A DNA stretch of 64,000 nt from Cenarchaeum sp. (GTDB taxonomy: Archaea; Thermoproteota; Nitrososphaeria; Nitrososphaerales; Nitrosopumilaceae), in assembly GCA_963693095.2 (NCBI GenBank), contig OY843768.1:1152001-1216000 (forward strand). Direction: 5' to 3'. The notes below the pieces were generated by a model, which made no database searches, was not told the origin of the DNA, and saw only the letters and a list, made by a program, of their open reading frames with translations. Each line of letters begins with the position of its first letter. Position 1 is the stretch's first letter. The translations under genes and the position numbers were made by a program. Shown in pieces: positions 44,307 through 60,590 of this stretch.

Positions 44307-45451
44307 GATTTGCGCACATATCTGACATGCACCTGGGCCAGACACAGTACGGCAGGGCAGAGCGCGAGGATGACATGTATGACGCCTTTGATGAGGCAGT
44401 GGACATCTCGATCAAGGACAGGGTCGACTTTGCCGTACTCGCCGGCGACCTGTTTGACAAGCCGGTTCCAAGCGGCCGTGCCATAGTCTCCCTTGGCAAC
44501 TCGCTCAAGAGGCTAAGTGACGCCGACATAAAGGCGTACTTTATACTCGGCGAGCACGACGTCAGCAGGGTCAGGGCAACGCCGGTCGCACAAGTGTACC
44601 ACAACCTCGAGGTCGCCGATTACATTGGCCACGGCACGCCAGTGATGCACAAGGACACGCTTCTAGTCGGCATGGACAAGAAGCGCCGTGATGAGATGCC
44701 CGAGCATGCCGAGGTCATGGCCAGGGCCGATGCGGCCGCAAGGGCGCACACCGGTCGCAGCGTGCTAGTCATGCACCAGGGACTCATGGAGGTCAACAAG
44801 TTTGCCGGCGAGATCGCCGTCTCGGAGATGCCAAAGTCGTTCTCCTACTATGCGATGGGCCACCTGCACGACAGGCACGAAAGGCGCTTTGAGTCCCTCG
44901 GCGGCCCCCTTGCGTATCCCGGCTCGACGGAGGTGAGCTCGATGGAGGGCATACGCGGCACGAAAAAGGGGTTCTATGAGGTCGACATCTCCGGCGAGGA
45001 GGCGTCCATGGACTGGATCGCCCTAGACACGCGCCCACACGTCTCATTTGACGCCGAGTACGACGCCATGGGCTCGCGCGTCGCCGAGATCGTCGCCGAG
45101 ATAAGGCGGCTAAAAAAGAGCCCTGTCGTCAGGCTCAACGTGAGTGGCCCAAAGGTCGACGTGGGAGCGGCACACGAGCAGGCCGTGCCGATTCGCGAGG
45201 CTGCCCTCCACCTGCAGGTCAACGCAAGCCACACGGAGGGTAGCGAGGGCGCAGGGGAGGTCATGGTCGAGAGGCCCGTGCACATGGACGACGAGCGTGC
45301 GCGCCTGGCCGAGAAGGCCCTGGGCGACGGGTCGCTCTCGAATCTTGCGCTAAAGGCGCTCCTGCCCCTCCTCTCTGCTGGCAGAATGGACGAGGCACTA
45401 AAGGTGGTCATGGACGACTATGAGAGTTTCAGGAAGGGGCGTACAAAATGA
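44303..45451 (+). CDS. mre11: DNA repair nuclease Mre11
   Basis: HISD.HLG, AGDLFD, GEHD, MHQ, YYAMGHLH, YPGS. Confidence 0.93.
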   Translation: MRFAHISDMHLGQTQYGRAEREDDMYDAFDEAVDISIKDRVDFAVLAGDLFDKPVPSGRAIVSLGNSLKRLSDADIKAYFILGEHDVSRVRATPVAQVYHNLEVADYIGHGTPVMHKDTLLVGMDKKRRDEMPEHAEVMARADAAARAHTGRSVLVMHQGLMEVNKFAGEIAVSEMPKSFSYYAMGHLHDRHERRFESLGGPLAYPGSTEVSSMEGIRGTKKGFYEVDISGEEASMDWIALDTRPHVSFDAEYDAMGSRVAEIVAEIRRLKKSPVVRLNVSGPKVDVGAAHEQAVPIREAALHLQVNASHTEGSEGAGEVMVERPVHMDDERARLAEKALGDGSLSNLALKALLPLLSAGRMDEALKVVMDDYESFRKGRTK

Positions 45452-48400
45452 TTATCGAAGTCGAGCTCGTGGACTTTTTGTCGCATGGCACAACAAGCGT
45501 AAAATTTGGTCCCGGAATGAACGTCATAGTCGGGCCCAACGGTGCCGGCAAGTCAAGCATTGTTGATGCAATAACGTTCGCGTTCTTTGGCAAGCACACG
45601 CGCAAGGTGAACAAGCTGCTCATACGCCACGGTGCCACGTCAGGATACGCAACGGTGATCTTTGAGGTTGGAGACAGGCGATTCATGGCCACAAGAAAGC
45701 TAAAGACGGGTGGTGCCGCAACGCCCACGCTGTACGAATGGTCAGACAAGACATGGGTCAATGTGGCCGCAGGCGAACGAAGGCAGATGGACGAGTCAAC
45801 GACGCGCGTGATTGAGGACATTGTCGGTATGGACTTTGAAAAGATGCAGATAGCGTCAATAATAAGGCAGGGCGAGCTGGCCGACATAGTGCGCGAGTCG
45901 CCCAAGGAGTTCAAGACGCGCATCAACGACATTATCGGGAACAGTGACCTTGATGTGGCCGATGGAATGATGGCCGACCTGCTTGCGGGGTTCCGCAACA
46001 GCATTCGTGACAGGCTTGGGCATGATGACCTGCACCTGCCCACGATCACCGCCGAACTCGAGGATGACAGGGCCGAGTCCCAAAAGGCCGGCGCCGAGAT
46101 GCGAGCGCTAGCCGCCGAGCGCGCAGAGGCCGAGGCTGGGATAAAGGCGCTGGAGGACGAGGCCTCGCGCGCCGAGGAAGGCGCGAGGGCCAGGGGAGAG
46201 CTCGAGGCAAGGAGCGCCGAGCTCGCAAAGTATGCGAGTGAGGCGGGCCGCGAGGCCGCAGCCGACAGGGACAGGATCGCCGGCGAGGCCGCCGAGTGCC
46301 GCAGGCGCCTCGGCGAGTGCGAGGCCGGCGGTGGCGGCGGCGCTGATGCCATGAGGTCGCGCGCGGCCGCTATCGAGGCCGAGCTCGCACGCGCCGAGGA
46401 GGGCTCGAGGGCCAGGGGAGAGCTCGAGGCAAGGGGTGCCGAGCTCGCAAAGTATGCGAGTGAGGCGGGCCGCGAGGCCGCAGGCGACAGGGACAGGATC
46501 GCCGGCGAGGCCGCCGAGTGCCGCAGGCGCCTCGGCGAGTGCGAGGCCGGCGGTGGCGGCGGCGCTGATGCCATGAGGTCGCGCGCGGCCGCCGTCGAGG
46601 CCGAGCTCACACGCGCCGAGGAAGGCGCGAGGGCCAGTGGCGAGCTAGATGTGAGGAGAAAGGAGCTCGCCGGACATGCGAAGCAGAGGGGTCGCGAGGC
46701 CGCCGCCGACAGGGACAGGATCGCTGGCGTGGCCGCCGAGTGCCGCAGTCTCCTTGATGTTGCCCGGACCGCCGGAGAGGTGGCCACAAGGCTCGAGGAG
46801 GCGCGGCATGAGTTGGAGGCCGAGGCAGAGCTTGTGACCTCCGATGAAAAAAAGACGGCAGCTCTGGAGGAACAGACTGTTATTGCAGGCAGGCTCACAC
46901 TAAAAGACGGCAAGTGTCCCGTATGCGACTCGCGCGTGAGCAGCCTAAACCCACTGTTCGCAATAGAGCACATCAAGGACGAGATGGAGCGCACCCTGGC
47001 AGACACAAGGGTTCACAAGGAGGCCGTGAAACGACACACCTCTAGGATTGACGAGCTCACAGTGCAGGAGAGGCAGGCAATGAAGGCAAAGAGCGCACTC
47101 GATGCGCACAATGTGAGCAGTGTCGATGACATTGAGGCCATGTCCAAAAGGGCCGTCGCGCTAGAAGAGACGATCAGCATGGCCGAGGCGTGCGCGCGCG
47201 GCGACTGGCAGGCCGGCGCGGGCATCGACTCGCAGGCCAGGGCGCATTGCGAGGCCATCGCGTCTCTGGAGGAGACGGCAGGGCGCGCCGGCGCGCGGCC
47301 AGTCGAGGAGCTCGAGTCCGAGCTCACAGCAGTGCGCCATGCGATCGACGCAGTGACGTTCCTAGAGGCCCACTCGGTGGGCGGCGCGGCTGACATTGAC
47401 GCAATGGAGCGTAGGGCCGAGGCGCTCGGAGCAGTGGCCGAGATGGCCGAGGCGTGTGCGCGCGGCGACTGGCAGGCCGGCGCGGGCATCGACTCGCAGG
47501 CCAGGGCGCACTGCGAGGCCATCGCGGCCCTGGAGGAGAGGGTCGCCGGCGCCGGCGGGCGGCCAGCAGGGGAGATCAGGGCCGAGCTCGAGGCCGTGCG
47601 GCGCGCGATCGACGCAGCAACGTTCCTGGAGGCGCACTCGGTGGGCGGCGCGGCAGACATCGAGGACATGGAGCGCAAGGCCGAGGGGCTAGACGCCGTG
47701 GTGGGCATGGCCGAGGCGTGCGCGCGCGGCGACTGGCAGGCCGGCGCGGGCATCGACTCGCAGGCCAGGGCGCACTGCGAGGCCATCGCGGCCCTGGAGG
47801 AGACGGCAGGACGCGCCGGCGGGAGGGGCGTCGCCGAGATCACCGCAGAGCTCAAGGACGCAAAGGCCGCCCTAGACGGCGTAAACCGGAGGCACGGCGG
47901 CGCCGAACAGCGCGCAAGGGCGCTCGCCGACAGCATCTCAAAGAACGGCAGGCTCTCTGCGGAGCTCGAGACGGTCAGCGCGTATGTCAGGAGGCTAGAC
48001 TCGATCAGGGACGTCTTTAGGCGCGACGGGCCGGTGGCGACTAGCATGAGATCATGGGCACTAGACGAGATAGCAAGGGGAAGCACCGAGCACCTGGGCC
48101 TGCTTGACACGAGAATAAACAGGATTACGCTCTCAGAGAAGGACAGAAACGTGACAGTAACATGCCATGCCGGAGTCACCACAAGCGGCGTCTACTCGCT
48201 GAGCGGCGGCGAGCAGGTCTGCGTGGCGCTGGCCCTACGCCTCGGAATGGCAAGGCTACTCGGGCCTAGTGGGCCAAGATACGTCATACTCGACGAGCCG
48301 ACTGCGCACCTTGACGAGGAGCGCAGAAAGGCGCTAGCGCACGTGCTCACAAACCTGTCCGGAGCATCTGAGGGAAGGGCGCCCATGCAGTTTATCATGA

Positions 48401-48507
48401 TAACGCATGATGCCGAGATATTTGGCGAGGCGCCAGTGGAGAGGTGCTATAGGTTTGAGCCCGGCGAGCGCGGGACCGTTGTGTCAGAGCTTGGCCGCGG
48501 CGACTAG
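45448..48507 (+). CDS. rad50: Rad50 ATPase with internally triplicated coiled-coil arms
   Basis: GPNGAGKSS, Q-loop RQGE, zinc hook CPVC (~46915), LSGGE, LDEPT, THD. Confidence 0.93.
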   Translation: MIIEVELVDFLSHGTTSVKFGPGMNVIVGPNGAGKSSIVDAITFAFFGKHTRKVNKLLIRHGATSGYATVIFEVGDRRFMATRKLKTGGAATPTLYEWSDKTWVNVAAGERRQMDESTTRVIEDIVGMDFEKMQIASIIRQGELADIVRESPKEFKTRINDIIGNSDLDVADGMMADLLAGFRNSIRDRLGHDDLHLPTITAELEDDRAESQKAGAEMRALAAERAEAEAGIKALEDEASRAEEGARARGELEARSAELAKYASEAGREAAADRDRIAGEAAECRRRLGECEAGGGGGADAMRSRAAAIEAELARAEEGSRARGELEARGAELAKYASEAGREAAGDRDRIAGEAAECRRRLGECEAGGGGGADAMRSRAAAVEAELTRAEEGARASGELDVRRKELAGHAKQRGREAAADRDRIAGVAAECRSLLDVARTAGEVATRLEEARHELEAEAELVTSDEKKTAALEEQTVIAGRLTLKDGKCPVCDSRVSSLNPLFAIEHIKDEMERTLADTRVHKEAVKRHTSRIDELTVQERQAMKAKSALDAHNVSSVDDIEAMSKRAVALEETISMAEACARGDWQAGAGIDSQARAHCEAIASLEETAGRAGARPVEELESELTAVRHAIDAVTFLEAHSVGGAADIDAMERRAEALGAVAEMAEACARGDWQAGAGIDSQARAHCEAIAALEERVAGAGGRPAGEIRAELEAVRRAIDAATFLEAHSVGGAADIEDMERKAEGLDAVVGMAEACARGDWQAGAGIDSQARAHCEAIAALEETAGRAGGRGVAEITAELKDAKAALDGVNRRHGGAEQRARALADSISKNGRLSAELETVSAYVRRLDSIRDVFRRDGPVATSMRSWALDEIARGSTEHLGLLDTRINRITLSEKDRNVTVTCHAGVTTSGVYSLSGGEQVCVALALRLGMARLLGPSGPRYVILDEPTAHLDEERRKALAHVLTNLSGASEGRAPMQFIMITHDAEIFGEAPVERCYRFEPGERGTVVSELGRGD
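46168..46750. repeat. 222-bp (74-aa) tandem repeat, ~2.6-3 copies, N-terminal arm of Rad50
   Basis: CGCGCCGAGGA.GGC recurs at 46168, 46390 and 46612; copies 1 and 2 nearly identical. Confidence 0.92.
47090..47850. repeat. 264-bp (88-aa) tandem repeat x3, C-terminal arm of Rad50
   Basis: ATGGCCGAGGCGTG.GCGCGCGGCGACTGGCAGGCC recurs at 47179, 47443 and 47707. Confidence 0.92.
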
Positions 48508-48992
48508 CCGCCTGTGAGCTTTGCAAATTTTGGGTTCTTGCTCAGGTTTTCCATGAACTCAATGTTGGATAGCGCGACTATTGCAGAGTCGACTACTGGC
48601 TTGTCAGCATCGCCTAGGGCAGACTCTAGGGCCTTGCGCGACTCGGGTGAGCCGATCACCCCAAGCGCAATGGCGGCCTCGTGGCGCACAAACATGCTAG
48701 AGTCCCCAAGGGTTGCGTCTGCTAGCGGCGCCACGCATGACGAGTAGCACATCTGACCTAGCGAAAAGGCCGCCTCGTGGCGCACGAGCTCGTTTGGGTC
48801 ATCCTTGAGCACGCGCGCAATGTGGGGAACCTTGTCCTCGCCCCCAAAGTCCACGAGGATGCAGGTTGCGCGCGTGCGAACCACATAGTCATTGTGGTCT
48901 AGAAGAGCCACAAAATAGCCCGTGTCCTTGGCCTCATACCGTGACTCCATCTCGGCGAACGTGCGCATCCTCTCCTCGGTTACTGCCTGCAA
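48504..48992 (-). CDS. HEAT/PBS-lyase repeat protein (DOHH-like)
   Basis: Two VRHEAA motifs; TTG start at 48992, TATA at ~49018-49025. Confidence 0.85.
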   Translation of the reverse strand: MQAVTEERMRTFAEMESRYEAKDTGYFVALLDHNDYVVRTRATCILVDFGGEDKVPHIARVLKDDPNELVRHEAAFSLGQMCYSSCVAPLADATLGDSSMFVRHEAAIALGVIGSPESRKALESALGDADKPVVDSAIVALSNIEFMENLSKNPKFAKLTGG

Positions 48993-49437
48993 CGGCGCGC
49001 GTCGTCTAGCGCCCCGTATTATACATTGGCAGGCCCGCGTCCAAAACACCCGTGCAGTGCAGATCGATCCATCTTGCAACGATCCTGCCGCAGCAGCCAC
49101 TGCCACGGTGGCGCGCATGGCGACATCTCGTGCCGTGTCAGCCTCCCGCCCGTGTGCTGCCACCTCCCACAATTGCCAACTAGCGGATCATCAACGTTGT
49201 GTCACGAGTGTGCCCTGAGGAGATCGCATGGGCATTGGCGTCAGGGGAGCCAATGTGCCAAGCGCTGCTAGCCATGGTATGCCACGCTGACAGGCCAGAG
49301 CGGCATTTCCAAATTGGTCTAGCGCACCACCTGCCAGACAGCACACATGTGATGACACAGGGGCAACTGTTGTCCAACGAGTCTTCAATGAATTCCTAAA
49401 CCAGTCAGGCGCCTTTGTGATTTTAGCAGCACGTTGG

Positions 49438-49959
49438 CTATGACGCAACAGAGGGCAATCCCATACGCGAGATAGTCATGTCCCTAACCTCGTCAAACCG
49501 CCCGTCAAGATGAGCCTGACCCTTTTCAATATTCACAAGTCTAGAATCAACCACCTGCATTTGATCTGCCCGTTCCTTTCGATCTTGCGCACGCTCGTCC
49601 TGGCGATCCTTGAGATCCTGCGCACGCTCGGCCTGGCGCGCCTTGAGATCCGCCTCACGTTCGTCCTTGTGTGCCTTGAGATCCTTCTCGCGCTCGGCCT
49701 GGCGATCCTTGAGATCCTGCGCACGCTCGGCCTGGCGATCCTTGAGATCCTTCTCGTGCATGACATTTCTGTTCGCGATCTCGCCGTCGAGCTTGTCGCA
49801 CATCTTGTTGATCGCCCCAAGGAACTCCTTCCGGTCTTCCTCACGGTCTTTCTTGCGCTGCTGTTCTGTTGCGCGAGCCCACTTTCGCGTCTCTATTGCG
49901 ACGTACATGATGACTCCGAACAGCGACAGCGCTATTGTGAGGAATGTTGCCTCGATCAC
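49438..49959 (-). CDS. Membrane-anchored coiled-coil protein with 11-aa repeats
   Basis: Hydrophobic N-terminus FLTIALSLFGVIMYVAI; DLKDRQAERAQ-type repeats x5; TATA-like TTATATTGAAAA upstream. Confidence 0.75.
   Translation of the reverse strand: MIEATFLTIALSLFGVIMYVAIETRKWARATEQQRKKDREEDRKEFLGAINKMCDKLDGEIANRNVMHEKDLKDRQAERAQDLKDRQAEREKDLKAHKDEREADLKARQAERAQDLKDRQDERAQDRKERADQMQVVDSRLVNIEKGQAHLDGRFDEVRDMTISRMGLPSVAS
49585..49755. repeat. Imperfect 33-bp tandem repeat x~5
   Basis: CCTTGAGATCC recurs with a 33-bp period. Confidence 0.85.
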
Positions 49960-50202
49960 GTCAAGCCTTGAGCAATTTTCAATATAAGCATATCCGGGGC
50001 ATCAGGCGTGGACTCGCAGAATATCGGCAGGCGGCAGGAAATATCCCAATCTTGCCCATGGGGCGCCCCGTGGCAGCCACGCCCACGCACGCCATGATCC
50101 CCGCTAGGCAGGCGCCCCCACACAGACTGCCAGTCACACAAGGGGGGAATAGGATTTGACCCGTTAAATTTATCAACGAATAGGTTGTGAGACAGGGCAG
50201 GC

Positions 50203-51012
50203 ATGGACACGCACATGGAGTCCCACGTAGGCGCCGCAGGGCAGCACCCACAGACGAGGGATGCCAAGTGCGTCTATCATGGGACAAGGTGCCTAGTTCC
50301 ATGCGACGGCGAGATTGTGTGCAGACTGTTTGGCAATGTCGTGGGCAGGGTGGAGGAGTCAGACATTGCCCACAGCGATTCGCACGAGTTCCCCTCGGCC
50401 AGGTTTGGCGCGGGTGCAGTTTCTGAGTCCCTGGGAACCGCAAGCCCAAAGATCGGGGGCAAGGCTCGAAAAGTCTACACGAAATACGATGGAGACCGCA
50501 TTTGGAGATATAGGATAGGCCATATCGCCGACCATTTTGGCATAGGAAGATCAGTCAGGAGCGAGATAGAGTTTGTCTTTTCTCAACTCAGGCGCAAGAC
50601 CAACCGCAGGCCATCGCACATACTATTTTTCGCAGTTTACAACACGTGCAGGGAAAGAGGGGCATGTGTGGTGAGTGAGCACGAGTTGCGCAAGGTAATG
50701 TGCCATTGCTGCAACCTTCAAAGCATGCACAGCGCATTGAAGATATACGGGATGTTTGCCGTGGAAGCACGGAGGCTTGGGCTGTACAGTGGACACAACA
50801 CGTCTGGATTTTACTTTAACACATTCCTCAACACGACTGCCAGGGCACTTGACCTAGACGAGTCAGACAGGCAGGCCCTGTGGAGAAAGGCCCACCAGCG
50901 ATACTTGCTCCTTCCTGCATCCATGAGTGAAAAGTACCGCACGAGAAGCACGTTTCGCGCAGTGCTAGGAAAGCGCGTGTTTGAGTCCATAAAGGGCGAG
51001 GTGAAATACTGA
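50203..51012 (+). CDS. Divergent, truncated transcription factor B (TFB/TFIIB)-like protein
   Basis: CVYH...CLVPCDGEIVCRLFGNVV resembles the TFB Zn ribbon (CxxC...D..GE.VCxxCG.V); IGHIADHFGI..SVR.E...VF and FFAVYNTCRERG resemble cyclin repeat 1; only the start of repeat 2 is present. Confidence 0.65.
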   Translation: MDTHMESHVGAAGQHPQTRDAKCVYHGTRCLVPCDGEIVCRLFGNVVGRVEESDIAHSDSHEFPSARFGAGAVSESLGTASPKIGGKARKVYTKYDGDRIWRYRIGHIADHFGIGRSVRSEIEFVFSQLRRKTNRRPSHILFFAVYNTCRERGACVVSEHELRKVMCHCCNLQSMHSALKIYGMFAVEARRLGLYSGHNTSGFYFNTFLNTTARALDLDESDRQALWRKAHQRYLLLPASMSEKYRTRSTFRAVLGKRVFESIKGEVKY

Positions 51013-52136
51013 TGAAAAAGGCAGGCATTGAGAGTGGCAAGATACACATGTTGAGGATAGATGATCTAATTCACGCGCCGGTGCCCATACACGTGCATTC
51101 ACAAAAGCAGATGAACCACATTTCAGCCAAAATGCTCAAGGATGAGCAAGAAAAGACCATACTAGTTGCGGCCCTAGGCGATCAAATGTACATAATAGAC
51201 GGGCACCTAATGGCCGAGGTTTACCGCAGAAATGGCAGGAAGGCCATAGCGGCGAGGGTCTGCACCGCCAAAAACGAGCAGGAAGTCATCGCCATGCACA
51301 TACGCCATAACATGAGCAACCCTCCCAACCCCGTACAGCTCCTCGAGGCAATAATGTACATGAGGGAACGCAGTGAGACTGACGAGGAGATATGCGACAG
51401 CCTAAACATGAACAAGGGCACAGCGGGGATACTCAAGCTGAGCGTCAATGCGGATGCGCTAAACGAGATGAGGGGGGTTATCGAGGACGTCTCAACGGTC
51501 TACTATTCGATCCACCACACATTTCCCATGTATCTCCTAGAATGGGTCTTCAAGCAGCACATAGAGCGCCAGCACGATGCCGCAACTGCGCTACGGCAGG
51601 TAGTCGCAGATTCCTGCAAGGGCCTTGAGCACAAGTTTGTCTGGCCCACAATAATGGAGGTGCGCATCAGGCAGAGCTACAACGGTGATGACAAGGATGC
51701 AGACGCCGGACCAGTTGGAATACCCCTGAGGGTCCATAGCGACGGAGCCAGGGGGAGGCCTTTGGGGAGCAGCAGCGCATCTGACGTCATAAAGGAGGCG
51801 CCCGGCACAAGCGAGTTGAGCCACATAAACGACAACACCCCCACATCGCGCAGGAGGGTGGTGTTCAAGTGCCCGCACGGCTCGGTGATGTATGTCGACG
51901 GCAAGTCGCGCGCGTACCATTTGGACGATGAGGGCGCCGACAATGTCACCTACATGCGGCGCCTAGACGACGAGGAGGGCGTGTACCAGATATCCGGCAG
52001 AACGCTGAGGTTTCTGCGCGCAAAAAATGGCAAGGTATGCCTCAAGGAGTGCACGCCGACGCAGCTTGCAAAGCTGGTCACAAAGATCAAGAAGGGGCGG
52101 ATAAATGTCTGCATTCTTTCCTCAGAGAACCTTTGA
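51012..52136 (+). CDS. ParB/Srx N-terminal domain protein with HTH, degenerate CTP-binding box
   Basis: L.IDDL, TILV.......YIIDGH, A.HI.HN...NPV, EEICDSLNM (HTH); start overlaps the upstream stop (TGATG). Confidence 0.72.
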   Translation: MKKAGIESGKIHMLRIDDLIHAPVPIHVHSQKQMNHISAKMLKDEQEKTILVAALGDQMYIIDGHLMAEVYRRNGRKAIAARVCTAKNEQEVIAMHIRHNMSNPPNPVQLLEAIMYMRERSETDEEICDSLNMNKGTAGILKLSVNADALNEMRGVIEDVSTVYYSIHHTFPMYLLEWVFKQHIERQHDAATALRQVVADSCKGLEHKFVWPTIMEVRIRQSYNGDDKDADAGPVGIPLRVHSDGARGRPLGSSSASDVIKEAPGTSELSHINDNTPTSRRRVVFKCPHGSVMYVDGKSRAYHLDDEGADNVTYMRRLDDEEGVYQISGRTLRFLRAKNGKVCLKECTPTQLAKLVTKIKKGRINVCILSSENL

Positions 52137-52953
52137 TAGCGGGATATTCGCCCCACAGGGGCAATGCCGCAGCGTGGCCGATCAGGCAAACGTGCTTGTG
52201 AACCTGCGGGCGATCAAGCGCAATGGCCGGATGCACAACCTGCTCTGCCTTTTGCATCTCGCAAACGAGCACTCTTGGGGGCCAAGTGTGGTCATATCTC
52301 CGGGGGACGTGCGAAATTTTAGGAATTTTCGCGGTCTAGCGCACTCGACGAGCCTAGTGGACGTAAGGCTGTGCGCCACGGAGGGTGCGGCCCCATACGG
52401 GTTTACGCGCCTCACGGACACGCGTGGAGACGGGATTGTCGCATCAGACACAGGCGGGCGATTTGTCTGCATGCGGCTCACAACCATCGGGCGCTGGATG
52501 GCATTTGGCCTGTTGTGGGACATGAGCCCATTTGCGATGTGTGTGGCAGCAGTAATCAACGTGGCCATTACGCAAAGTGGGAAAAACTGGACAATCTGCA
52601 AGGACTCTTGCACGTGCCATGGCACACGGATAATCGGAGTGCATGAAAAGAGAAACTGGAACCCGAGCCCGTTAACGGCACTAATGTGCTCACGAAAGTT
52701 TCCCGAATGCAGCAAAACCAAGATTATGCGCGCGCTGAGGGAACTTGAGAATTGCGGGATGATCACAATTAGCAAGAAAATGCGCTGCGCCATCATAAGG
52801 TCAAACCCCGATCATCCCCTATTGTCCTGCCATGCGCACATACTTGCCAGGCTAGCAACGGTCATTAACGACCAGGACACCCTAGAGAACGCAACACGGC
52901 ACGTAAAGTTTGTGCAGCCGACGCCGAGGAGATCGAGTTGTCAGAGATCATAG
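52105..52953 (+). CDS. Hypothetical protein with C-terminal winged HTH
   Basis: SKTKIMRALRELENCGMITI wHTH signature; overlaps both neighbours; start uncertain. Confidence 0.55.
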   Translation: MSAFFPQRTFDSGIFAPQGQCRSVADQANVLVNLRAIKRNGRMHNLLCLLHLANEHSWGPSVVISPGDVRNFRNFRGLAHSTSLVDVRLCATEGAAPYGFTRLTDTRGDGIVASDTGGRFVCMRLTTIGRWMAFGLLWDMSPFAMCVAAVINVAITQSGKNWTICKDSCTCHGTRIIGVHEKRNWNPSPLTALMCSRKFPECSKTKIMRALRELENCGMITISKKMRCAIIRSNPDHPLLSCHAHILARLATVINDQDTLENATRHVKFVQPTPRRSSCQRS

Positions 52954-53615
52954 CCGATGCGGCAGGTGCCATCCTGTCAGCCGGAATGGTCGGCTCGGCA
53001 GCATGGTTTGACCTGCGCGAAAGGGGCATCCCGTACGGCATGTTAGCAGTCATCGGCATTGCGGCGGCAGTGTTTATGGCAGTCCGATGGATCGCGCTAG
53101 GCATGTGGCCATCAGGCCATGACATTGTGTGGATGGCCATCGCGTGTGCCGTGTCCCTCACAATGCTCTTTCGCGGCACGCTAGTTGCGCGTGGCGACGC
53201 GCTGATGATCATGATAACAGGCACACTAGTTCCGAGCATAGTCGGGATTCCGGCCCTTCCCATGGCAATGGGAATCGCCCTAGGAGTGGCCATCGTGGCG
53301 CACATTGCAGGCACCATAGTGCCAAACTTGGCAGAGCTAGCGCGAACCGGCCGCGTGTTTGCTGGTGTGGACGAGTCGGCGATCCGCAAGGCCGCAGCGT
53401 TTCTTGTGGTGCACAGGAGAAGGAGCGGCGAGAGGTTTTGCTTTGCGGCCGAGGCGACTAGTGGCGGGCGCAGGAGGCTCGTGCTCCTGCCCGGCTCCCT
53501 CGATGACGCCGACATTGGCGCGCAGACCGTGTACGTGATCTCCGCAATACCGTTCATGGTTCCGTATCTTGTCGGCGCAATCGCCGTCGCCGCGCTCGCC
53601 ATTGTCGCCATTTGA
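52938..53615 (+). CDS. Type IV prepilin/preflagellin peptidase (A24 family)
   Basis: First TM ends in WFDLRER.IP (Asp1), ARGDA (GxGD-like Asp2), multi-TM, C-terminal IPFMVPY as in FlaK/PibD-type peptidases. Confidence 0.75.
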   Translation: MSEIIADAAGAILSAGMVGSAAWFDLRERGIPYGMLAVIGIAAAVFMAVRWIALGMWPSGHDIVWMAIACAVSLTMLFRGTLVARGDALMIMITGTLVPSIVGIPALPMAMGIALGVAIVAHIAGTIVPNLAELARTGRVFAGVDESAIRKAAAFLVVHRRRSGERFCFAAEATSGGRRRLVLLPGSLDDADIGAQTVYVISAIPFMVPYLVGAIAVAALAIVAI

Positions 53616-54623
53616 GTCAGTGCAATTTAGCTCATGCGCAGTGGTGAGTATTAGCTCGAGCACGTCACCTACCCTGTCTAGCACGGCCATTGCGAGTCGA
53701 AGCACTGCGCGATCATCAGACCCCTTGGTGTACCGGCGAATATAGTCACGCGTGAATGCCCTAGTGGATCCCGTGCCATACATCTCAGACAGGACACATG
53801 AGGAAAGCTGTGCCACTGCCTCCTGTATTGGATCCTGGCAAGCCTTTAGCCGTTTGCCAGAGCGCGCTAGCACCATATTGTCAGCTGCGTGGCTTATCTC
53901 GTGAAAGAACACTCCTGGGTCTTCGGTTCCCAGGCGTATGACATGCAAGTTTGTGTCATAGCTTCCCATGGTCGTTTCACTGGGATCCACCTGGTAGCGT
54001 ATGGGGATTCCCCATTTTTGGGCCACATTGGAGAGTGGCGGTGCCTGTGCGGGCATGTACTCGGGCAATGATGCGCCCACCGTGTCCTCCACTCGAAACT
54101 CTGGCTGGCAGCCAAACCCCCGAATGGTGCGAGTCACACGGGATTCTGGTTCGCGCCCAATCGCGCCCGGTGAAAGGGAGAGGCCGCACATGCTGCAAAC
54201 AAACTCGCGTGTGGCCTTTTTGTACCAAAGGCGCACCTTGTGCGTCGTCTTGTCAGAACATTTTTTGCACGAGTACGAATATAGCGGCTTTATGATATAG
54301 ATCGCCGATCTGCGCGAAATGATCTTTCTGTCTACACGGTTCCACTGGGAAATGTTGCGCGCGTCAAACGTTCCCTGTCCCACCATAAGAACACGGTTCT
54401 TGAGTGACCATTTCATGCACGGACGATCGTCCTTCGGATCCCCGATAAAGCTGATTTTGCTGATCGTCTCCGTTATTTTGCCGCTCTTGAACTCATCGAC
54501 GATCCTTTGGAGGATAAGGTCAGCGCGTTCGGTGTTGCCCGAGCGCCGTCCACCTGCGCGCGCACTGTTGCGCCGTGCGCCCTTTGCTCCCCTTGCCCCA
54601 TCAGCGATCCCGCTCACGCCCAA
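53337..54623 (-). CDS. ArdC-like protein: ssDNA-binding N-domain, Zn-finger insert, zincin (MPTase) domain
   Basis: WSLKNRVLM..Q...DAR...QWN...RKI......IYIIKP (ArdC-N), CKKC...CSMC, FFHEISH, QEAVAQLSS..L...YG...YI..Y; the last ~90 codons overlap the peptidase gene antisense. Confidence 0.75.
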   Translation of the reverse strand: MGVSGIADGARGAKGARRNSARAGGRRSGNTERADLILQRIVDEFKSGKITETISKISFIGDPKDDRPCMKWSLKNRVLMVGQGTFDARNISQWNRVDRKIISRRSAIYIIKPLYSYSCKKCSDKTTHKVRLWYKKATREFVCSMCGLSLSPGAIGREPESRVTRTIRGFGCQPEFRVEDTVGASLPEYMPAQAPPLSNVAQKWGIPIRYQVDPSETTMGSYDTNLHVIRLGTEDPGVFFHEISHAADNMVLARSGKRLKACQDPIQEAVAQLSSCVLSEMYGTGSTRAFTRDYIRRYTKGSDDRAVLRLAMAVLDRVGDVLELILTTAHELNCTDSNGDNGERGDGDCADKIRNHERYCGDHVHGLRANVGVIEGAGQEHEPPAPATSRLGRKAKPLAAPSPVHHKKRCGLADRRLVHTSKHAAGSR

Positions 54624-54776
54624 AGAGGGGCAATTTTTGATTTAAGGAGGCACAGGCCCTGCAGGTCAGGCCGGCCATGAACACGGTCACGGGGCCGGCA
54701 TGGCCAAGCCGCACCGGCCATAGTCGCGCGCCCGTGCGATCAGTTTTATAATTCCCAAATCGGTGTCTGATTCACC

Positions 54777-55808
54777 ATGAAAAAGGGGTCCATTGCAAAA
54801 AGGCTGTGGTCGGGGAGAAGGCGCTCCAAGGAGGATCACGCGTCTGATGAGCGCAAAGTCGAGGAGATCAACGGCAAGAATTTTGTGTGGATAGACCTCC
54901 AGAATCCCGACAGGGAGAACGTCGAAAACCTTGCCTCAAAGTACAAATTTAACACGCTAAACGTGGAGGACTGCCTGACAAAGTTTGAGCTTCCCAAGCT
55001 CGATGCGTATAACGACCACATGTTCCTGATATTGCACTTTCCCCCGCTTGTGGCCAGGCAGGCAATTCCAAAGCACAACCAGCTCTCGATATTTGTGGGA
55101 AAGGACTTTCTCATAACTGTCCACCAGGGAAACCTAAAGCCGCTCGTTGACCTAGTCAAGACGTGCAAGACCGGAATTGATCCTGAAAGGCGAGATCGAC
55201 TCATGTCAAGCTCCACTGCAGTCCTGCTCCATGAGATAATTGACGTGCTAGTTGATGACCTGCTCCATACGCTCAGGCGCGTCATGGCAAATCTTGATGA
55301 CATTGAGGATGATGTCTTTGATGAGAGCAAGTCTGTCGCAAAGAACATCCACGTGTTGAGGCGCGAGATCACCGTACTGCGCAGGATAGCTAGCCCACTA
55401 AAGCGCATAGTGCTCGGCGCGGCCAAGAACATAGCAAGCTATTCGCCAGAGGAGGATCTGACGCTATACTTTGATGACGTGATCGACCACATAGACAAGG
55501 CCATAGACACGCTAGAGGAGTCAAAGGAGACCATGGAGATATACAAGGACACAGACTTTGTGCTAAGCACCGAAAAGGCCAGCAAGGTTCTAGCTGTCCT
55601 GACGATCATATTCACGCTTGCAATACCGGCCACGGTGATAGGAACCTTTTACGGCATGAACGTCAGCCTTCCCGGAGGCATTGGCGATGCGGGCGGAACG
55701 TCCGCTGACGGATCATACAACACGTTCTTTGCCGTCATTCTAGCCTCCATAGTGCCTGCGAGCATCATGTACCTCTACTTTAGAAAGCTCGGATGGATGA
55801 GCGGCTAG
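54777..55808 (+). CDS. corA: CorA family Mg2+ transporter
   Basis: WIDL.NP, YF.DV.DH, YGMNV signature, two C-terminal TMs; TTTTATA promoter at ~54744-54750. Confidence 0.93.
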   Translation: MKKGSIAKRLWSGRRRSKEDHASDERKVEEINGKNFVWIDLQNPDRENVENLASKYKFNTLNVEDCLTKFELPKLDAYNDHMFLILHFPPLVARQAIPKHNQLSIFVGKDFLITVHQGNLKPLVDLVKTCKTGIDPERRDRLMSSSTAVLLHEIIDVLVDDLLHTLRRVMANLDDIEDDVFDESKSVAKNIHVLRREITVLRRIASPLKRIVLGAAKNIASYSPEEDLTLYFDDVIDHIDKAIDTLEESKETMEIYKDTDFVLSTEKASKVLAVLTIIFTLAIPATVIGTFYGMNVSLPGGIGDAGGTSADGSYNTFFAVILASIVPASIMYLYFRKLGWMSG

Positions 55809-55907
55809 CCGCCGGGGCAGCCTTCCAGGCCAGAGACGCCGTTGCGATCCTCGGGCACAGTCGGGCATTGTGCGCATCTATTCTAGAGGGTTAGTACGTG
55901 TGAACTG

Positions 55908-58694
55908 CTAGCGGTCAGGGCAGCCGTCAAGGTCAGCGACGCCGTCACGATCCTCTGGCGCAGTCGGGCACATGTCAGCCGTGTCCGGTATGCCATCAGA
56001 GTCCGTGTCTAGGGAGTGCCTAGACTGCTCTGGGGTGGTGTCCGGACACCCGTCATGGTCACGGTACTTGTTCCACGTTTCAGGCGCAGCGGGGCAGAGA
56101 TCCACAATATCGGCAATGTTGTCATTGTCAATGTCCGATCTTGACGACTCGAGTGGCCCCTCTGGAATCTCGTCAGGGCAGCCGTCCGAGTCAAGATAGC
56201 CGTTGAACGTCTCAGGCGAGATGATGCACTGGTCGAGCCTGTCGTCGATTCCGTCACTGTCGGTGTCAGGGTACGAATAGCCCGTTCGCTCCGTGACCAC
56301 CGTGTCCGGGCAGCCGTCAGAATCCTCAAACCTGTTGTAGGTCTCGGGCTCTAGGACGCACTCGTCGTCTGCATCAGGCACGCCGTCAGAGTCCGTGTCA
56401 GGCTGCGGAGCCACGCCGTCGGGGCAGCCGTCACCGTCGTCTATGCCGTTGACGGTTTCGCGCACCGTGGGGCACACGTCAGCAACGTCAATTATGCCAT
56501 CACCGTCAGTGTCGGGTATCGAATTTCCGCTTAGGATCACATCTGGGCAGCCGTCATCGTCCTCGTGCATGTTGTACGTCTCAAACTGGTCAGGGCACGC
56601 GTCGGCCGTGTCAGGTATGCCATCACCGTCAGAGTCTAGGGTTGTGGACGGAGAGCGGATAATGATGTCAGGGCAGCCGTCCTGGTCGTAAAACCCGTTG
56701 TATCTCTCGCCGGCAGTGGGGCACTTGTCCTCGTGGTCAGGTATGCCGTCATTGTCAGTGTCAAGCGTTGGCAGTGTGCGCTCGAGCGCCGTGTCCGGGC
56801 AGCCGTCCCAGTCAAGGTAGCCGTTGGTCGTCTCGAGCTCTTCAGGGCACTGGTCACGCACGTCAGGTACGCCATCCCCGTCAGAGTCAGACGGCACGTA
56901 TTCGGTAACCTGCACGATCGAGTCGCCGTCCGGACAGCCGTCGGTGTCGTCTATTGCGTTGTATGTCTCAAATGTTGTGGGACACTCATCAGACACGTCA
57001 TCTATCCCGTCACCGTCAGTGTCCGCAGATATCGCATCAGAGTCCGGACAGCCGTCGGTGTCGAGTATGCCGTTTACCGTCTCGGCCCTAGTGGGGCACG
57101 AGTCCATCGCGTCAAGTATGCCATCACCGTCAGTGTCAGGGGCGACAAACTCGATCTCCACGCCGTCAGGACACCCGTCATCGTCGTTTATCCGGTTGAA
57201 CGTCTCGCGCTCCTCAGGACACTCGTCAACGTGGTCCAGGACGCCGTCAAAGTCAGAGTCCCCGCTGTGCGCAACCTGCGGAATGTCAGGGCAGCCGTCG
57301 CTGTCCATAAACCCGTTGTAGCGCTCCCCGACGCCGGGGCACAGGTCATCGCTGTCAGGCACGCCGTCATAGTCCGAGTCAGGCGCCGTGCTCTGCGTGT
57401 CGTACCCCTCGGTGTCAGGGCAGCCGTCCCAGTCAAGGTATCCGTTGGCGTTCTCTGGCTCGGCGGGGCACTGGTCCCACCTGTCCTCTATGCCGTCATT
57501 GTCCGAGTCGGGGAACTCAAATGTGACCGTGGGAGCCACGACGGCATCAGGGCAGCCGTCGGTATCCTCAAACCTGTTGTACGTCTCGGGCTGCGTCGGG
57601 CACAGGTCATCAGGGTCGATGATGCCATCGGCGTCGCGATCGCCGGCCACGCGATCCGTGTCAGGGCATCCGTCAGTGTCCATGTACCCGTTTACCGTCT
57701 CGGGCGTTATCGGGCACACGTCAACAATGTCAAATATCCCGTCACCGTCAGAGTCCGGCGTGACTGAGCCGATCGTCACTATGTCCGGGCACCCGTCCTC
57801 GTCATCAACCATGTTGTAAACCTCGCGGCTTAGCGGGCAGAGATCCACATTGTCCGGAACGCCGTCACGGTCAATGTCGCCGGTGAGCTCGATGGCGATC
57901 TCGTCGGGACATCCGTCAGAGTCCATGAGCTTGTTAAAGATCTCGCGCTCTTGTGGGCAGTGATCCTCTGTGTCCGGAATGCTGTCATAGTCAGAGTCGA
58001 CGGCGCCTCTTGAGGTGACGCCCGGCCTGTCAACGCAGCCGTCCCAGTCAAGATAGTCGTTGCGGTTCTCGGCCTCCTCGGGGCACTGATCCCACCTGTC
58101 GTCAATCCCGTCACCGTCAGTGTCCGGAAACTCGTATGCGACGCGCGTCTCCTCGACCTCATCAGGGCAGCCGTCAGCATCCATGAACCTGTTGTACGTC
58201 TCCTGCTCAAAGGGGCACAGGTCGACGCTGTCAGGAACCGCATCCTTGTCGTTGTCGGTGATCGGGATATAGTCATCAGGGCAGCCGTCACGATCGAGAA
58301 CTCCGTTTGGAGTCTCAGGCTCGTCAGGGCACGAGTCTAGGCTGTCAATAAACCCGTCACCATCCGAGTCCTCAAGGATCACGCGATCCCTCTCCACGAC
58401 AACATCAGGGCAGCCGTCCTCGTCGAGGTGCCTGTTGTAGCGCTCCTTTACAGTTGGGCAGAGATCCAGGCGATCTTCAATGCCGTCATTGTCCGTGTCG
58501 TACCACGGCACAAAGTCCGACGGGCAGCCGTCGATCTCGCCCACGTTGTCCTCGCGCACGTAGGGGCACTCGTCGATCGAGTTGGGGACGCCATCAGAGT
58601 CGATGTCGATGTCAGGAACCTGCGCCATCGCGCCGGCGGGCAGTGACACTAGCAGCGTCGCGGCCATGGCCATAATCGCCCAATACTTGCCCAT
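55908..58694 (-). CDS. Secreted thrombospondin type 3 (TSP3)-like Ca-binding repeat protein, 22 units
   Basis: Signal peptide MGKYWAIMAMAATLLVSLPAGAMA; DxDxDG(I/V)xDxxDxCP...E..N...DxDGCP units counted by eye. Confidence 0.9.
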   Translation of the reverse strand: MGKYWAIMAMAATLLVSLPAGAMAQVPDIDIDSDGVPNSIDECPYVREDNVGEIDGCPSDFVPWYDTDNDGIEDRLDLCPTVKERYNRHLDEDGCPDVVVERDRVILEDSDGDGFIDSLDSCPDEPETPNGVLDRDGCPDDYIPITDNDKDAVPDSVDLCPFEQETYNRFMDADGCPDEVEETRVAYEFPDTDGDGIDDRWDQCPEEAENRNDYLDWDGCVDRPGVTSRGAVDSDYDSIPDTEDHCPQEREIFNKLMDSDGCPDEIAIELTGDIDRDGVPDNVDLCPLSREVYNMVDDEDGCPDIVTIGSVTPDSDGDGIFDIVDVCPITPETVNGYMDTDGCPDTDRVAGDRDADGIIDPDDLCPTQPETYNRFEDTDGCPDAVVAPTVTFEFPDSDNDGIEDRWDQCPAEPENANGYLDWDGCPDTEGYDTQSTAPDSDYDGVPDSDDLCPGVGERYNGFMDSDGCPDIPQVAHSGDSDFDGVLDHVDECPEERETFNRINDDDGCPDGVEIEFVAPDTDGDGILDAMDSCPTRAETVNGILDTDGCPDSDAISADTDGDGIDDVSDECPTTFETYNAIDDTDGCPDGDSIVQVTEYVPSDSDGDGVPDVRDQCPEELETTNGYLDWDGCPDTALERTLPTLDTDNDGIPDHEDKCPTAGERYNGFYDQDGCPDIIIRSPSTTLDSDGDGIPDTADACPDQFETYNMHEDDDGCPDVILSGNSIPDTDGDGIIDVADVCPTVRETVNGIDDGDGCPDGVAPQPDTDSDGVPDADDECVLEPETYNRFEDSDGCPDTVVTERTGYSYPDTDSDGIDDRLDQCIISPETFNGYLDSDGCPDEIPEGPLESSRSDIDNDNIADIVDLCPAAPETWNKYRDHDGCPDTTPEQSRHSLDTDSDGIPDTADMCPTAPEDRDGVADLDGCPDR

Positions 58695-58714
58695 TACCAA
58701 CGATCTGCGAATGC

Positions 58715-58736
58715 GCGTCTTTATTAAACTACGCGG
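58715..58736 (-). promoter_or_regulatory. Promoter block containing TTTAATAAA, identical to 60591-60612
   Basis: 22-bp GCGTCTTTATTAAACTACGCGG, starting 21 nt from the ATG in both genes. Confidence 0.8.
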
Positions 58737-58812
58737 CGAGGCCACGAGAAACGCAGGGGCCGGATGCGGCATGGTGGCACCGGGGCAGGCGGCTCGGGAT
58801 TGCATCACACAG

Positions 58813-60570
58813 CTACCCTACCGGAAACGAGTCTGGGCACCCGTCCATGTCGTCAAACTTGTTCCATGTCTCGGGCTCATTGGGGCACTCATCGTTGGCA
58901 TCACGCAGGCCGTCATTGTCAGAGTCGGCGTGCTCGGCCGAGAGGACGAGCTTGTCAGGGCAGCCGTCAGAATCCATGTACCCGTTGCGCGTCTCGGCAA
59001 GCTCGGGACACGCATCCGAGGCGTCAGGCACGCCGTCATGGTCCGAATCAGGCGGTGGCTGCACGTCAGGGCAGCCGTCAGTGTCAAGGTAGCCATTGTA
59101 CGTCTCGGCGTCAAGGGAGCACTTGTCGATTATGTCCTGTATGCCATCGCCGTCAGCGTCGTTGACGCCTGTTGTGAGCACCACGTCAGGGCAGCCGTCA
59201 GTGTCATCGACCATGTTGAACGTCTCGATCTGCGTCGGGCACTCGTCTAGCGCGTCTGGAATGCCATCGCCATCGGCATCAGGAACCGTTCCCCTGTCTG
59301 GGCAACCGTCAGTGTCGAGTATGCCGTTGATCGTTTCGGGGACTGACGGGCACAGGTCGAGGCGGTCAGGCAGCCCGTCGCCATCAGAGTCCGGGTTTAG
59401 GTCACGCGAGTCGGCGACAAAGTCAGGGCAGCCGTCATCGTCCATGTACCTGTTGTACGTCTCTGGATCCATCGGACACTCGTCCACGGTGTCAAGCACA
59501 CCGTCAGAGTCGGCATCTCCCACGATCGGATCCGAGTCTGGGCAACCGTCAGTGTCGAGGACTCCGTTTATTGTCTCTGGCGTTATGGGACACGTGTCAA
59601 CGGCGTCAAATATGCCGTCGCCATCAGAGTCTGGCGTGTTTAGCCCATATGGCGCAATGTCGGGGCACCCATCGGTGTCATCTACCATGTTGTAGACCTC
59701 TGGTAGCAGGACGCACAAGTCCTCGCTGTCGATTATTCCGTCAAGATCAGTGTCGGCGATTGTGGAGAGAACTAGCATGTCGGGGCAGCCGTCATCGTCA
59801 AGGTAGCGGTTAAAGTTCTCACGCTCCTGCGGACAGACATCCCTGTCGTCTGGAATGCTGTCATAGTCAGAGTCGATTACGCCATTGACCGTGACGCCGG
59901 GCTCGTCCTCACACCCGTCCCAGTCAAGATAGTCGTTGAGGTTTTCGGCCTCATTGGGGCACTGATCCCACCTGTCGTCTATGCCATCGCCGTCGGTGTC
60001 TGGAAACTCGTACGCTGTGCGCTCGGCCTGAACGTCATCGGGGCAGCCGTCAGCGTCCATGAACCGGTTGTACGTCTCCTGCTCAAAGGGGCACAGGTCG
60101 ACGCTGTCAGGAACCGCATCCTCGTCATTGTCGGCGATCGGGATATAGTCATCAGGGCAGCCGTCACGATCGAGCATGCCGTTAAATGTCTCAGGCGACG
60201 TGGGGCACACGTCTAGGATGTCAATGATCCCGTCGCCGTCTGTGTCGACTATGACTGAGCGTCCGGTGCCCGCAACGGTGTCAGGGCAGCCGTCCTCGTC
60301 CATGTACCTGTTATAGTTCTCCTTTACTGCGGGGCAGTTGTCGAGCCTGTCCTCTATGCCGTCAGAGTCTGAGTCATACCACTGGACAAAGTCCGACGGG
60401 CAGCCGTCGATCTCCCCCTCAAAGTCCTCGCGCACGTGTGGGCACTCGTCCATCGCGTTGGGCACGCCATCAGAGTCGATGTCAGTATCGCCATATTGCG
60501 CAAGGGCAGAGGCCGGAGTTGCGACTAGTAGCGTCGAGGCCATGACCATGAACGCCCAATAACTGCGCAT
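58813..60570 (-). CDS. Secreted TSP3-like repeat protein, 14 units (hybrid of its two neighbours)
   Basis: Signal peptide MRSYWAFMVMASTLLVATPASALA; same repeat unit. Confidence 0.9.
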   Translation of the reverse strand: MRSYWAFMVMASTLLVATPASALAQYGDTDIDSDGVPNAMDECPHVREDFEGEIDGCPSDFVQWYDSDSDGIEDRLDNCPAVKENYNRYMDEDGCPDTVAGTGRSVIVDTDGDGIIDILDVCPTSPETFNGMLDRDGCPDDYIPIADNDEDAVPDSVDLCPFEQETYNRFMDADGCPDDVQAERTAYEFPDTDGDGIDDRWDQCPNEAENLNDYLDWDGCEDEPGVTVNGVIDSDYDSIPDDRDVCPQERENFNRYLDDDGCPDMLVLSTIADTDLDGIIDSEDLCVLLPEVYNMVDDTDGCPDIAPYGLNTPDSDGDGIFDAVDTCPITPETINGVLDTDGCPDSDPIVGDADSDGVLDTVDECPMDPETYNRYMDDDGCPDFVADSRDLNPDSDGDGLPDRLDLCPSVPETINGILDTDGCPDRGTVPDADGDGIPDALDECPTQIETFNMVDDTDGCPDVVLTTGVNDADGDGIQDIIDKCSLDAETYNGYLDTDGCPDVQPPPDSDHDGVPDASDACPELAETRNGYMDSDGCPDKLVLSAEHADSDNDGLRDANDECPNEPETWNKFDDMDGCPDSFPVG

Positions 60571-60590
60571 TACTGTCGATCGCGCAGTAT

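Follow-up and report, generated by a model that had tools for sequence, protein, structure and literature searches.

A TFB–ParB–prepilin peptidase–ArdC gene block in Cenarchaeum as the probable retained core of a thaumarchaeal conjugative element

A block of five genes in the chromosome of Cenarchaeum sp. (contig OY843768.1) encodes a TFB/TFIIB-like transcription factor, a ParB-like protein, a protein termed X here, a divergent A24 prepilin peptidase and an ArdC-like protein (Table 1). It lies in a 64,000-nt stretch, positions 1,152,001 to 1,216,000 of the contig, which we call the window; coordinates refer to the window unless they carry the prefix G000:C1, where G000 denotes the source genome. 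We consider it probable (about 0.6) that a thaumarchaeal conjugative element left its regulatory and maturation core here, and that this core was fixed in the chromosome of the genus ancestor and has been retained since. A core of this kind, regulators plus pilin maturation, is typical of the conjugative elements of ammonia-oxidising archaea. The host may, in other words, have captured a conjugation system. Within the genus, four genomes besides G000 (G001, G002, G003 and G004) served for comparison.

The first-pass annotation of this DNA did not recognise the combination as a named system. According to the main text of Krupovic et al. (2019, PMC6563490), however, all thaumarchaeal integrative and conjugative elements (ICEs) encode a TFIIB homologue, which mostly sits immediately 5' of a ParB-like gene, the two probably forming one operon, and this TFIIB–ParB coupling appears specific to thaumarchaeal ICEs. 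The conserved components listed there are a prepilin peptidase, pilins, VirB4, VirD4, VirB6, TadC and FlaI, and no relaxase was found. A TFIIB gene directly upstream of ParB, together with a prepilin peptidase, is therefore a published hallmark of these ICEs, and the combination had already been described apart from ArdC; an ArdC-like gene is mentioned neither in the main text of PMC6563490 (0 occurrences) nor in that of Abby et al. (2018, PMC5797428). The main text of PMC6563490 also names no element from its analysed sponge-symbiont genome.

The locus resembles the ICEs of these two reports in that the TFIIB homologue sits directly upstream of the ParB-like gene in one operon. It further shares with them a prepilin peptidase, pilin-like genes, VirB4-like and FlaI-like ATPases, the lack of a relaxase and a patchy distribution across the order. 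Unlike them, it has no integrase or att site nearby, housekeeping genes separate the module from the apparatus, and the arrangement is uniform throughout the genus. Its VirD4-like gene lies elsewhere and is eroding, its proteins are too divergent for curated models, and it includes the ArdC-like gene.

The TFB-like, ParB-like, X and A24-like genes are co-oriented and overlap at their junctions by 1, 32 and 16 nt. The ArdC-like gene is convergent to them, and a membrane coiled-coil gene diverges from them, as the ORF (open reading frame) coordinates confirm for the layout proposed in the first pass. All five core ORFs are intact in the four other genus genomes as far as the contigs reach, which shows that they are not chance ORFs.

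The TFB–ParB–X(–A24 or –VirB4) operon recurs in three other genera, giving at least four genera in total. In genome G017 the TFB-like and ParB-like genes are followed by a 189-aa gene and an A24 peptidase that clears the Pfam cut-off (28.3 bits), and every junction is a 4-nt overlap. TFB-like and ParB-like genes are followed by a 209-aa gene in G235, and in G032 a TFB zinc ribbon protein, a ParB-like protein and a 185-aa gene precede a VirB4-like gene. In addition, the ArdC homologue of G033 lies two genes downstream of TraG/VirD4-like and TFIIB-repeat genes, with restriction and defence genes adjoining. Across 251 genomes of the order, the ParB-like protein was found in 22, the ArdC-like protein in 20 and the VirB4-like protein in 46. 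A VirB4-like gene was also present in 20 of the 22 ParB-like genomes and in 17 of the 20 ArdC-like genomes, and the ParB-like gene lay no more than 4 kb (1–4 kb) from it in 12 genomes. Because related genomes are not independent, these figures are descriptive counts and not tests.

The proteins of the window were searched directly against Pfam and NCBIfam at E ≤ 0.1, against Pfam again at E ≤ 10, and against PHROGs; only zinc-ribbon and TrmB fragments appeared among the Pfam matches at E ≤ 10. The TFB-like protein gave no Pfam TFIIB match at E ≤ 10, no NCBIfam match and no PDB match by sequence profile, and a genome scan with PF00382 recovered only three canonical TFB genes, all elsewhere in G000. 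Its AlphaFold2 (AF2) model, built from 13 homologues with a predicted local distance difference test (pLDDT) score of 67.5, contains nine helices over residues 94–264. The top Foldseek ranks of this model are all TFIIB/TFB, including 7nvu_M (E 3e-4) and 1d3u_B, the P. woesei TFB core (180 columns, TM 0.50). Consistently, an independent aligner (VIA) returned the cyclin fold at Z 10–12.7, and TFB, TFIIB and Brf chains spanned both repeats; 157 residues over 97–269 aligned with 1ais_B (Z 11.4, root mean square deviation 4.1) and 167 residues over 90–269 with 5iy6_M.

Further supporting the TFB assignment, hhalign against four element-borne TFB-like proteins from other genera gave 96.4% probability (E 1.4e-9, 213 columns). 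The homology is visible by hhalign only against this four-sequence alignment; the comparison with the TFIIB protein of G033 was not significant (BLASTP E 0.077; hhalign to the single sequence, 0.5% probability). These element-borne relatives retain the zinc ribbon (Zn_Ribbon_TF, E 1e-4 to 7e-4). The protein had first been described as a truncated TFB. Fold and profile bear out the TFB identity but not the truncation, since a ribbon-like hairpin (three short strands at 31–49, low confidence) is predicted to precede two cyclin repeats. TFB3 of Sulfolobales is a truncated form without the cyclin core; with both repeats present, the protein studied here is predicted to be a compact but complete TFB paralogue and not a TFB3-like truncation.

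The first-pass labels of the ParB-like, A24-like and ArdC-like proteins were likewise recovered by remote methods (fold, Pfam matches of homologues and invariant motifs). The ParB-like protein itself has no Pfam ParB_N match and no PDB match by sequence profile. It gave weak PHROG ParB-like matches (E 0.002–0.12), and its homologue in G032 matched Pfam ParB_N at E 8e-4, below the cut-off. The AF2 model (pLDDT 60.7) is good over residues ~10–220 and poor over 225–374, although the latter part is conserved. Foldseek matched it to ParB, Noc, KorB and Spo0J at E 5e-7 to 3e-5 (probability 1.00, 196–236 columns) and to the pNOB8 ParB N-domain at E 6e-4. In the model, residues ~10–225 are predicted to form a ParB/Srx N-domain followed by a helix-turn-helix (HTH) domain, an order that chromosomal and plasmid ParB, KorB and Noc share by fold. 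Unlike those proteins, the ParB-like protein lacks the Pfam match and an evident arginine motif, has a conserved C-terminal part of 150 residues, has no ParA partner in sight and is translationally coupled to the TFB-like gene. Its alignment showed no relation by hhalign to the 170-aa gene that follows TFIIB in G033.

For gene X, the family searches returned sub-threshold fragments only (TrmB, E 0.29; PHROG replication-initiator winged HTH, E 0.055). The winged-HTH label of the first-pass annotation, which rests on a 25-residue sub-threshold match, was not recovered by remote methods. Five database homologues were found, all close. A gene of 185–209 aa fills the slot after the ParB-like gene in the three other genera, and hhalign between X and these positional equivalents gave 11.6% probability only.

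The A24-like protein of the window has no Pfam match itself, and the Pfam A24 model picks out no other protein of G000 even at E ≤ 1. When a profile built on five orthologues was searched against 1.84 billion representatives, it yielded 66 matches at E ≤ 1e-3, of which 45 were aligned with the window protein. Among these 46 sequences, 40 match Pfam Peptidase_A24 (PF01478) and 17 match Arc_PepC_II, and both D25 (DLRERGIP) and D87 (ARGD) are invariant in 46/46. The top Atlas clusters are archaeal A24 (score 0.95), and the orthologues in G002 and G001 reach 24.1 and 21.9 bits against Pfam A24 (cut-off 26.5). Across the five genomes of the genus, A24 otherwise turned up just once, weakly, in G001 (C139, E 0.016). 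Collectively, the protein is predicted to be a divergent archaeal prepilin peptidase, and it is the only candidate class III signal peptidase found in G000.

The ArdC-like protein gave no Pfam match beyond a weak zinc ribbon and no sequence match to solved structures. Its homologues in three other genera are 33–35% identical. In the family of 20 sequences, 14 match Pfam ArdcN (PF08401, best E 8.8e-7) and one matches MPTase-PolyVal (E 0.0014); homologue L013 scores 26.2 bits against ArdcN, for which the cut-off is 22.6. Residues W72-S73, N76, G84-T85-x-D87 and W94 are invariant, and H241-E242-x-x-H245 is invariant in all 20 sequences. The family homologues support the assignment of a putative ArdC-N plus HExxH protein. 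Its putative two-domain order, with ArdcN seen in family members and an invariant HExxH downstream, is also that of ArdC from bacterial conjugative plasmids (ArdcN + MPTase-PolyVal). Unlike bacterial ArdC, the window protein is archaeal, stays below every threshold and carries a CxxC...CxxC (zinc-ribbon) insert between the domains, which is found in this genus only. In G000 and G004 the ORF continues for 279 nt on the strand opposite the 3' part of the A24 gene (53337–53615), which adds ~85 residues. The orthologues are shorter, with a TAG stop after 343–345 aa in G001 and G002 and an end at 357 aa in G003.

No VirB4 or pilin gene had been noticed in the first pass, which is correct within the window but not beyond it. 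A cluster of twelve co-directional genes on the minus strand (G000:C1:1217929-1236652) starts 11 kb downstream of the ArdC-like gene. It encodes a VirB4-like ATPase, whose matches to NCBIfam VirB4-like (E 1e-26) and CedB (E 6e-8) both fall below the trusted cut-offs, and, adjoining it, a FlaI-like ATPase (E 8e-60). The cluster also contains a 547-aa polytopic membrane protein, large secreted proteins and two small proteins (163 and 166 aa), each with a hydrophobic helix at its N-terminus. In one of these the N-terminus is pilin-like, RLAS-EI(I/V)GFAMLFGIV, and is conserved in G000, G004, G001 and G002; the ORF called in G003 begins within this stretch, and there only its hydrophobic core aligns. 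A few kb past the cluster (to G000:C1:1242530) we found a 706-aa ORF that matches T2SSF twice, weakly (E 0.03 and 0.07); a Pilin_N match, likewise weak (E 0.3), also lies there. The whole string G000:C1:1217929-1242530, in which four large proteins of 499–1080 aa are secreted or anchored and have no family match, is conserved in the genus. The VirB4-like gene is the best-conserved gene of the region and is present in all four other genus genomes at 76–98% identity.

The main rival explanation is that these genes build a host-controlled type IV pilus for adhesion or contact, for example with a host or partner cells, in which no DNA is transferred, the TFB-like, ParB-like and X proteins regulate, and the A24 protein is the signal peptidase. 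We regard this as unlikely, though it comes closer than the other rivals discussed below. TFIIB homologues are the commonest predicted regulators of archaeal type IV pilus loci in the account of Makarova et al. (2016, PMC4858521). The FlaI-like ATPase, the pilin-like N-termini, the large secreted proteins and the weak T2SSF and Pilin_N matches are all consistent with such a pilus, as are neighbouring genes for large surface proteins with Ca-binding repeats. However, the same gene string holds a highly conserved ATPase of the VirB4 conjugation family next to the FlaI-like gene, the ArdC-like gene has been retained beside the module in all five genomes, and homologous operons elsewhere adjoin VirB4-like or TraG-like genes. 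These features speak against a pure adhesion pilus.

The gene order TFB–ParB–X–A24–ArdC–CorA–repeat proteins is kept in G004, G002 and G003, and in G001 up to the contig end. The VirB4-like and ArdC genes lie on the same contig in G001, and synteny around the VirB4-like gene holds in G001, G002 and G004. No paralogues of these genes were found. The genus inherited the module vertically, without an integrase.

Estimated by the Nei-Gojobori method, dN/dS between G000 and G004 was 0.08 for the TFB-like gene, 0.34 for the ParB-like gene, 0.30 for X, 0.17 for the A24-like gene and 0.27 for the ArdC-like gene, with 0.07 for CorA. The deeper pairs, in which synonymous sites are near saturation, gave 0.14–0.62. 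By gene, the values spanned 0.08–0.26 (TFB-like), 0.34–0.48 (ParB-like), 0.30–0.62 (X) and 0.14–0.34 (ArdC-like). All 17 comparisons of the five module genes were below 1 (0.08–0.62), and the module is under purifying selection in the genus.

An inert, decaying remnant of an old element, kept by chance and linkage and with no present function, is thus improbable. The lack of an integrase or att sites nearby, the divergence that hides the proteins from curated models, an evolution faster than that of the neighbours, the shifted ArdC stop codon with its 85-aa antisense tail in G000 and G004, and the erosion of the VirD4-like gene in the genus would all fit decay. Yet the five ORFs are intact wherever the contig reaches, despite up to ~50–70% protein divergence. 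The catalytic Asp pair and the HExxH motif are likewise invariant, and the TATA-like box upstream is conserved.

The module and the apparatus cluster flank a block that runs from CorA to Taw-Ham1-RIO. Five other genera also carry Taw-Ham1-RIO, in one copy and in synteny, with neither module nor cluster as a neighbour. In agreement with the first-pass reading that the block has no integrase, the sole tyrosine recombinase of the genome (one PF00589 match) lies 630 kb away, and no PF00239 match to a serine recombinase was found in the genome. The nearest tRNA, a tRNA-Gly, has no repeat within 1.10–1.30 Mb; around the block there are only chance-level repeats and none that is att-like. The lower GC content first reported for the block is real (0.547–0.563 at 49001–53000 and 0.536–0.553 at 54001–56000, with a genome mean of 0.604), but the dip is small (0.536–0.563 vs 0.604) and also extends over the housekeeping gene CorA, and is therefore weak evidence for foreign origin.

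A large ICE that is still active at ~1.20–1.24 Mb, either carrying CorA, the repeat proteins and Taw-Ham1-RIO as cargo or having borders that went unrecognised, is highly improbable. Thaumarchaeal ICEs are described in the main text of PMC6563490 as large (median 64 kb) and cargo-bearing, with short att repeats, and the families discussed here are patchily distributed across the order. Nevertheless, such an element is hard to reconcile with the position of Taw-Ham1-RIO in the five genera, the identical arrangement in every species of the genus examined, the distant recombinase and the unrepeated tRNA gene.

The first-pass annotation also placed the block one gene away from a nurA–herA–mre11–rad50 operon. 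Two genes, the HEAT-repeat and the coiled-coil gene, actually lie between the block and Rad50. Of the operon, Mre11 (E 2e-28) and HerA (E 7e-74) were confirmed against solved structures, whereas the NurA candidate (41917–42756) had no match. The Rad50/HEAT/coiled-coil neighbourhood of the module is found in G000 and G004 only. In G002 and G003, the 16–19 kb preceding the TFB-like gene showed no NurA, HerA, Mre11, Rad50, HEAT or coiled-coil match, and the tie to double-strand break repair is little supported. The two predicted cyclin repeats of the TFB-like protein form the core that TFB3 lacks, and two unrelated genes separate the block from the operon. The least likely rival is accordingly a TFB3-like, DNA-damage-responsive regulator module coupled to nurA–herA–mre11–rad50 for DNA uptake and repair, despite the block's nearness to HerA–Mre11–Rad50 in G000 and G004 and despite a parallel with how Ups/Ced are induced in Sulfolobales (Beltran et al. 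2023, PMC9905601).

Several observations weigh against the block being the core of a fixed conjugative element. The five core proteins have no Pfam or NCBIfam match at E ≤ 0.1, and every family assignment is transitive or based on fold, with models of middling confidence (pLDDT 60.7, 67.5). In the TFB-like protein, C40 never varies, H26 and C30 hardly do, and the second CxxC reads C-R-L-F; the putative ribbon is one Cys short of the canonical four-Cys form. The arginine-rich nucleotide-binding (CTP) motif of ParB is GxxRxxA. The corresponding-looking stretch of the ParB-like protein is I-I-D-G-H-L-x-x-E (D-G-H-L-M-A-E), in which D63, G64, H65 and E69 are invariant and no arginine occurs. Gene X has no PDB match, its Atlas matches are hypothetical proteins, and a Pfam search over eight homologues returned no family. 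The module proteins are 31–67% identical across the genus, compared with 64–85% for housekeeping neighbours, and so evolve faster.

The apparatus raises similar points. The 547-aa polytopic protein and the 163- and 166-aa proteins of the cluster have no family matches and are candidates only for the VirB6-like pore and the VirB2-like pilin. The VirB4-like gene lies 25 kb from the ParB-like gene, compared with 1–4 kb in the 12 other genomes. The VirD4/TrwB-like gene (1011 aa) is 635 kb away, beside an integrase and a type I restriction-modification system; its counterparts in the genus are one of 69% identity with an internal stop, one of 37% and one of 34%, and in one genome none was found. 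Only 6 of the 251 genomes have the ParB-like, ArdC-like and VirB4-like proteins together. In family f9 the ParB-like protein occurs in 10/11 genomes and the ArdC-like protein in 0/11; in family f10 the counts are 0/57 and 11/57. ArdC and TFB–ParB are therefore not obligate partners, and their linkage is loose outside this genus.

Weighing these points, we favour one of the two readings that the first-pass annotation had offered, in which the block is a conjugative element's domesticated core, equipped with a transcription factor of its own: elsewhere the operon lies beside VirB4-like genes or in element-like regions, and here it is syntenic, lacks an integrase and is under purifying selection. 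Co-occurrence in other genomes, neutral decay and structure searches, on which that annotation had staked its proposal, were all examined, and for TFB, ParB and ArdC the outcome favours the module.

Table 1 Features of the module and its upstream flank (window coordinates).
Feature	Position	Strand	Remarks
HEAT-repeat gene	48504–49172		Between Rad50 and the coiled-coil gene
Coiled-coil gene	49438..49959	- (divergent)	N-terminal hydrophobic segment; six 33-nt tandem repeats
TATA-like A/T-rich box	50164..50175	+	~28–38 nt 5' of the TFB-like start codon; read from sequence
TFB/TFIIB-like transcription factor, 269 aa	50203..51012	+	Predicted ribbon-like hairpin, disordered linker, two cyclin-fold repeats
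ParB-like, 374 aa	51012..52136	+	Predicted ParB/Srx N-domain + HTH (~10–225); C-terminal part conserved
Gene X, 282 aa	52105..52953	+	Fastest-evolving gene of the operon; only sub-threshold family fragments
Predicted divergent archaeal A24 (class III signal/prepilin) peptidase, 225 aa, polytopic	52938..53615	+	Pfam matches of homologues; Asp pair
ArdC-like, 428 aa	53337..54623	-	ArdC-N-like domain, genus-specific CxxC...CxxC insert, HExxH domain

The AATTTA core of the TATA-like box is invariant in four species of the genus, and the GC-rich upstream region around it has diverged. This conservation suggests that the box may act as a promoter. Fourteen other genes of the region were compared, and none of them has a 9-mer of the TFB-like promoter in its upstream sequence. 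As a post-hoc lead only, a (C/G)TTAAAT box was seen 20–38 nt upstream of the TFB-like, ArdC-like (54624–54776), VirB4-like and 363-aa genes; it is missing upstream of the CorA, coiled-coil and cupredoxin genes. Contig C1 has 73 copies of CTTAAAT on its two strands, and the TTAAAT copy of the VirB4-like gene overlaps the upstream stop codon.

The coiled-coil gene was not found beside the module in G002 and G003 and is thus probably not part of it. Its product is predicted to be membrane-anchored, the tandem repeat unit corresponds to 11 aa, and the copy number differs in G004. Rad50 (45448–48507) has long internal repeats in its coiled coil, with a GC content of 0.70 at 46001–48000, and the orthologue in G004 aligns to residues 1–360 and 630–1019 only. 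Downstream of the module, three tandem minus-strand genes (55908–63620) encode proteins of 966, 585 and 979 aa with acidic D-x-D-x-D-G...C-P repeats, which may be thrombospondin type-3-like; they are syntenic and multiplied across the genus. At the other end of the window, an ORF of at least 2680 aa runs off its start (3–8042), and a GC trough of 0.45–0.46 (genome 0.60) spans 15001–17000.

Elsewhere on the contig, the type I restriction-modification region next to the VirD4/TrwB-like gene (G000:C1:1826000-1846000) has two specificity genes around an integrase and a DDE transposase. A copy of the last 68 residues of the VirD4-like gene, 87% identical, lies 245 kb away beside a small ParB_N ORF (C1:1592803-1593314). 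This region and the distant fragment are probably the remains of other elements.

If the block is indeed the core of a captured conjugation system, its parts could work together as follows. A conserved TATA-type promoter would drive a single operon, and the divergent TFB-like factor would redirect RNA polymerase to promoters that belong to the system. The ParB-like protein would bind element DNA, either as a partner of the TFB-like factor or as a silencer or partition factor, with gene X supplying a third component. The A24 peptidase would cleave class III signal peptides off the pilin-like proteins of the apparatus cluster, and the ArdC-like protein, with its putative zinc-protease domain, would bind transferred single-stranded DNA. 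Jointly, these parts would produce a machine, pilus plus VirB4, for moving DNA from cell to cell. The analysis establishes the gene structures, remote homologies, the operon's recurrence, its synteny and the purifying selection; we infer the expression, the targets, the direction of transfer and DNA as the cargo, the last from the VirB4 and ArdC families and from the element context of the relatives.

To the knowledge of Beltran et al. (2023, PMC9905601), as stated in their text, domestication of a conjugative apparatus for DNA transfer had not been reported outside the Ced system of Sulfolobales and the Ted system of Thermoproteales. Like these DNA importers, the system described here is chromosomal, integrase-less, vertically kept and centred on an ATPase of the VirB4 family, the CedB match being sub-threshold. 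What sets it apart from Ced and Ted is the addition of a FlaI-like ATPase, a TFB/ParB pair of its own, an A24 peptidase and the ArdC-like protein. Its hosts are Nitrososphaerota and not hyperthermophilic orders, and its VirB6-like and VirB2-like parts are candidates only.

The locus is thus a concrete and testable candidate for the domestication of a conjugation apparatus in a very different archaeal lineage from those of Ced and Ted. It offers a compact regulatory operon whose parts can be expressed and assayed individually: the TFB paralogue with its coupled ParB-like protein, an A24 peptidase that stands alone and has an obvious set of substrates, and the ArdC-like protein. Since curated models miss fast-evolving proteins of the TFB–ParB–X type, routine annotation will overlook such systems. 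More tentatively, the genus may have captured a conjugation machine that kept its own TFB–ParB switch, signal peptidase and ArdC-like single-stranded-DNA protein, and may now use it to exchange chromosomal DNA between cells. If true, type IV secretion would have been domesticated in archaea a third time, with different wiring.

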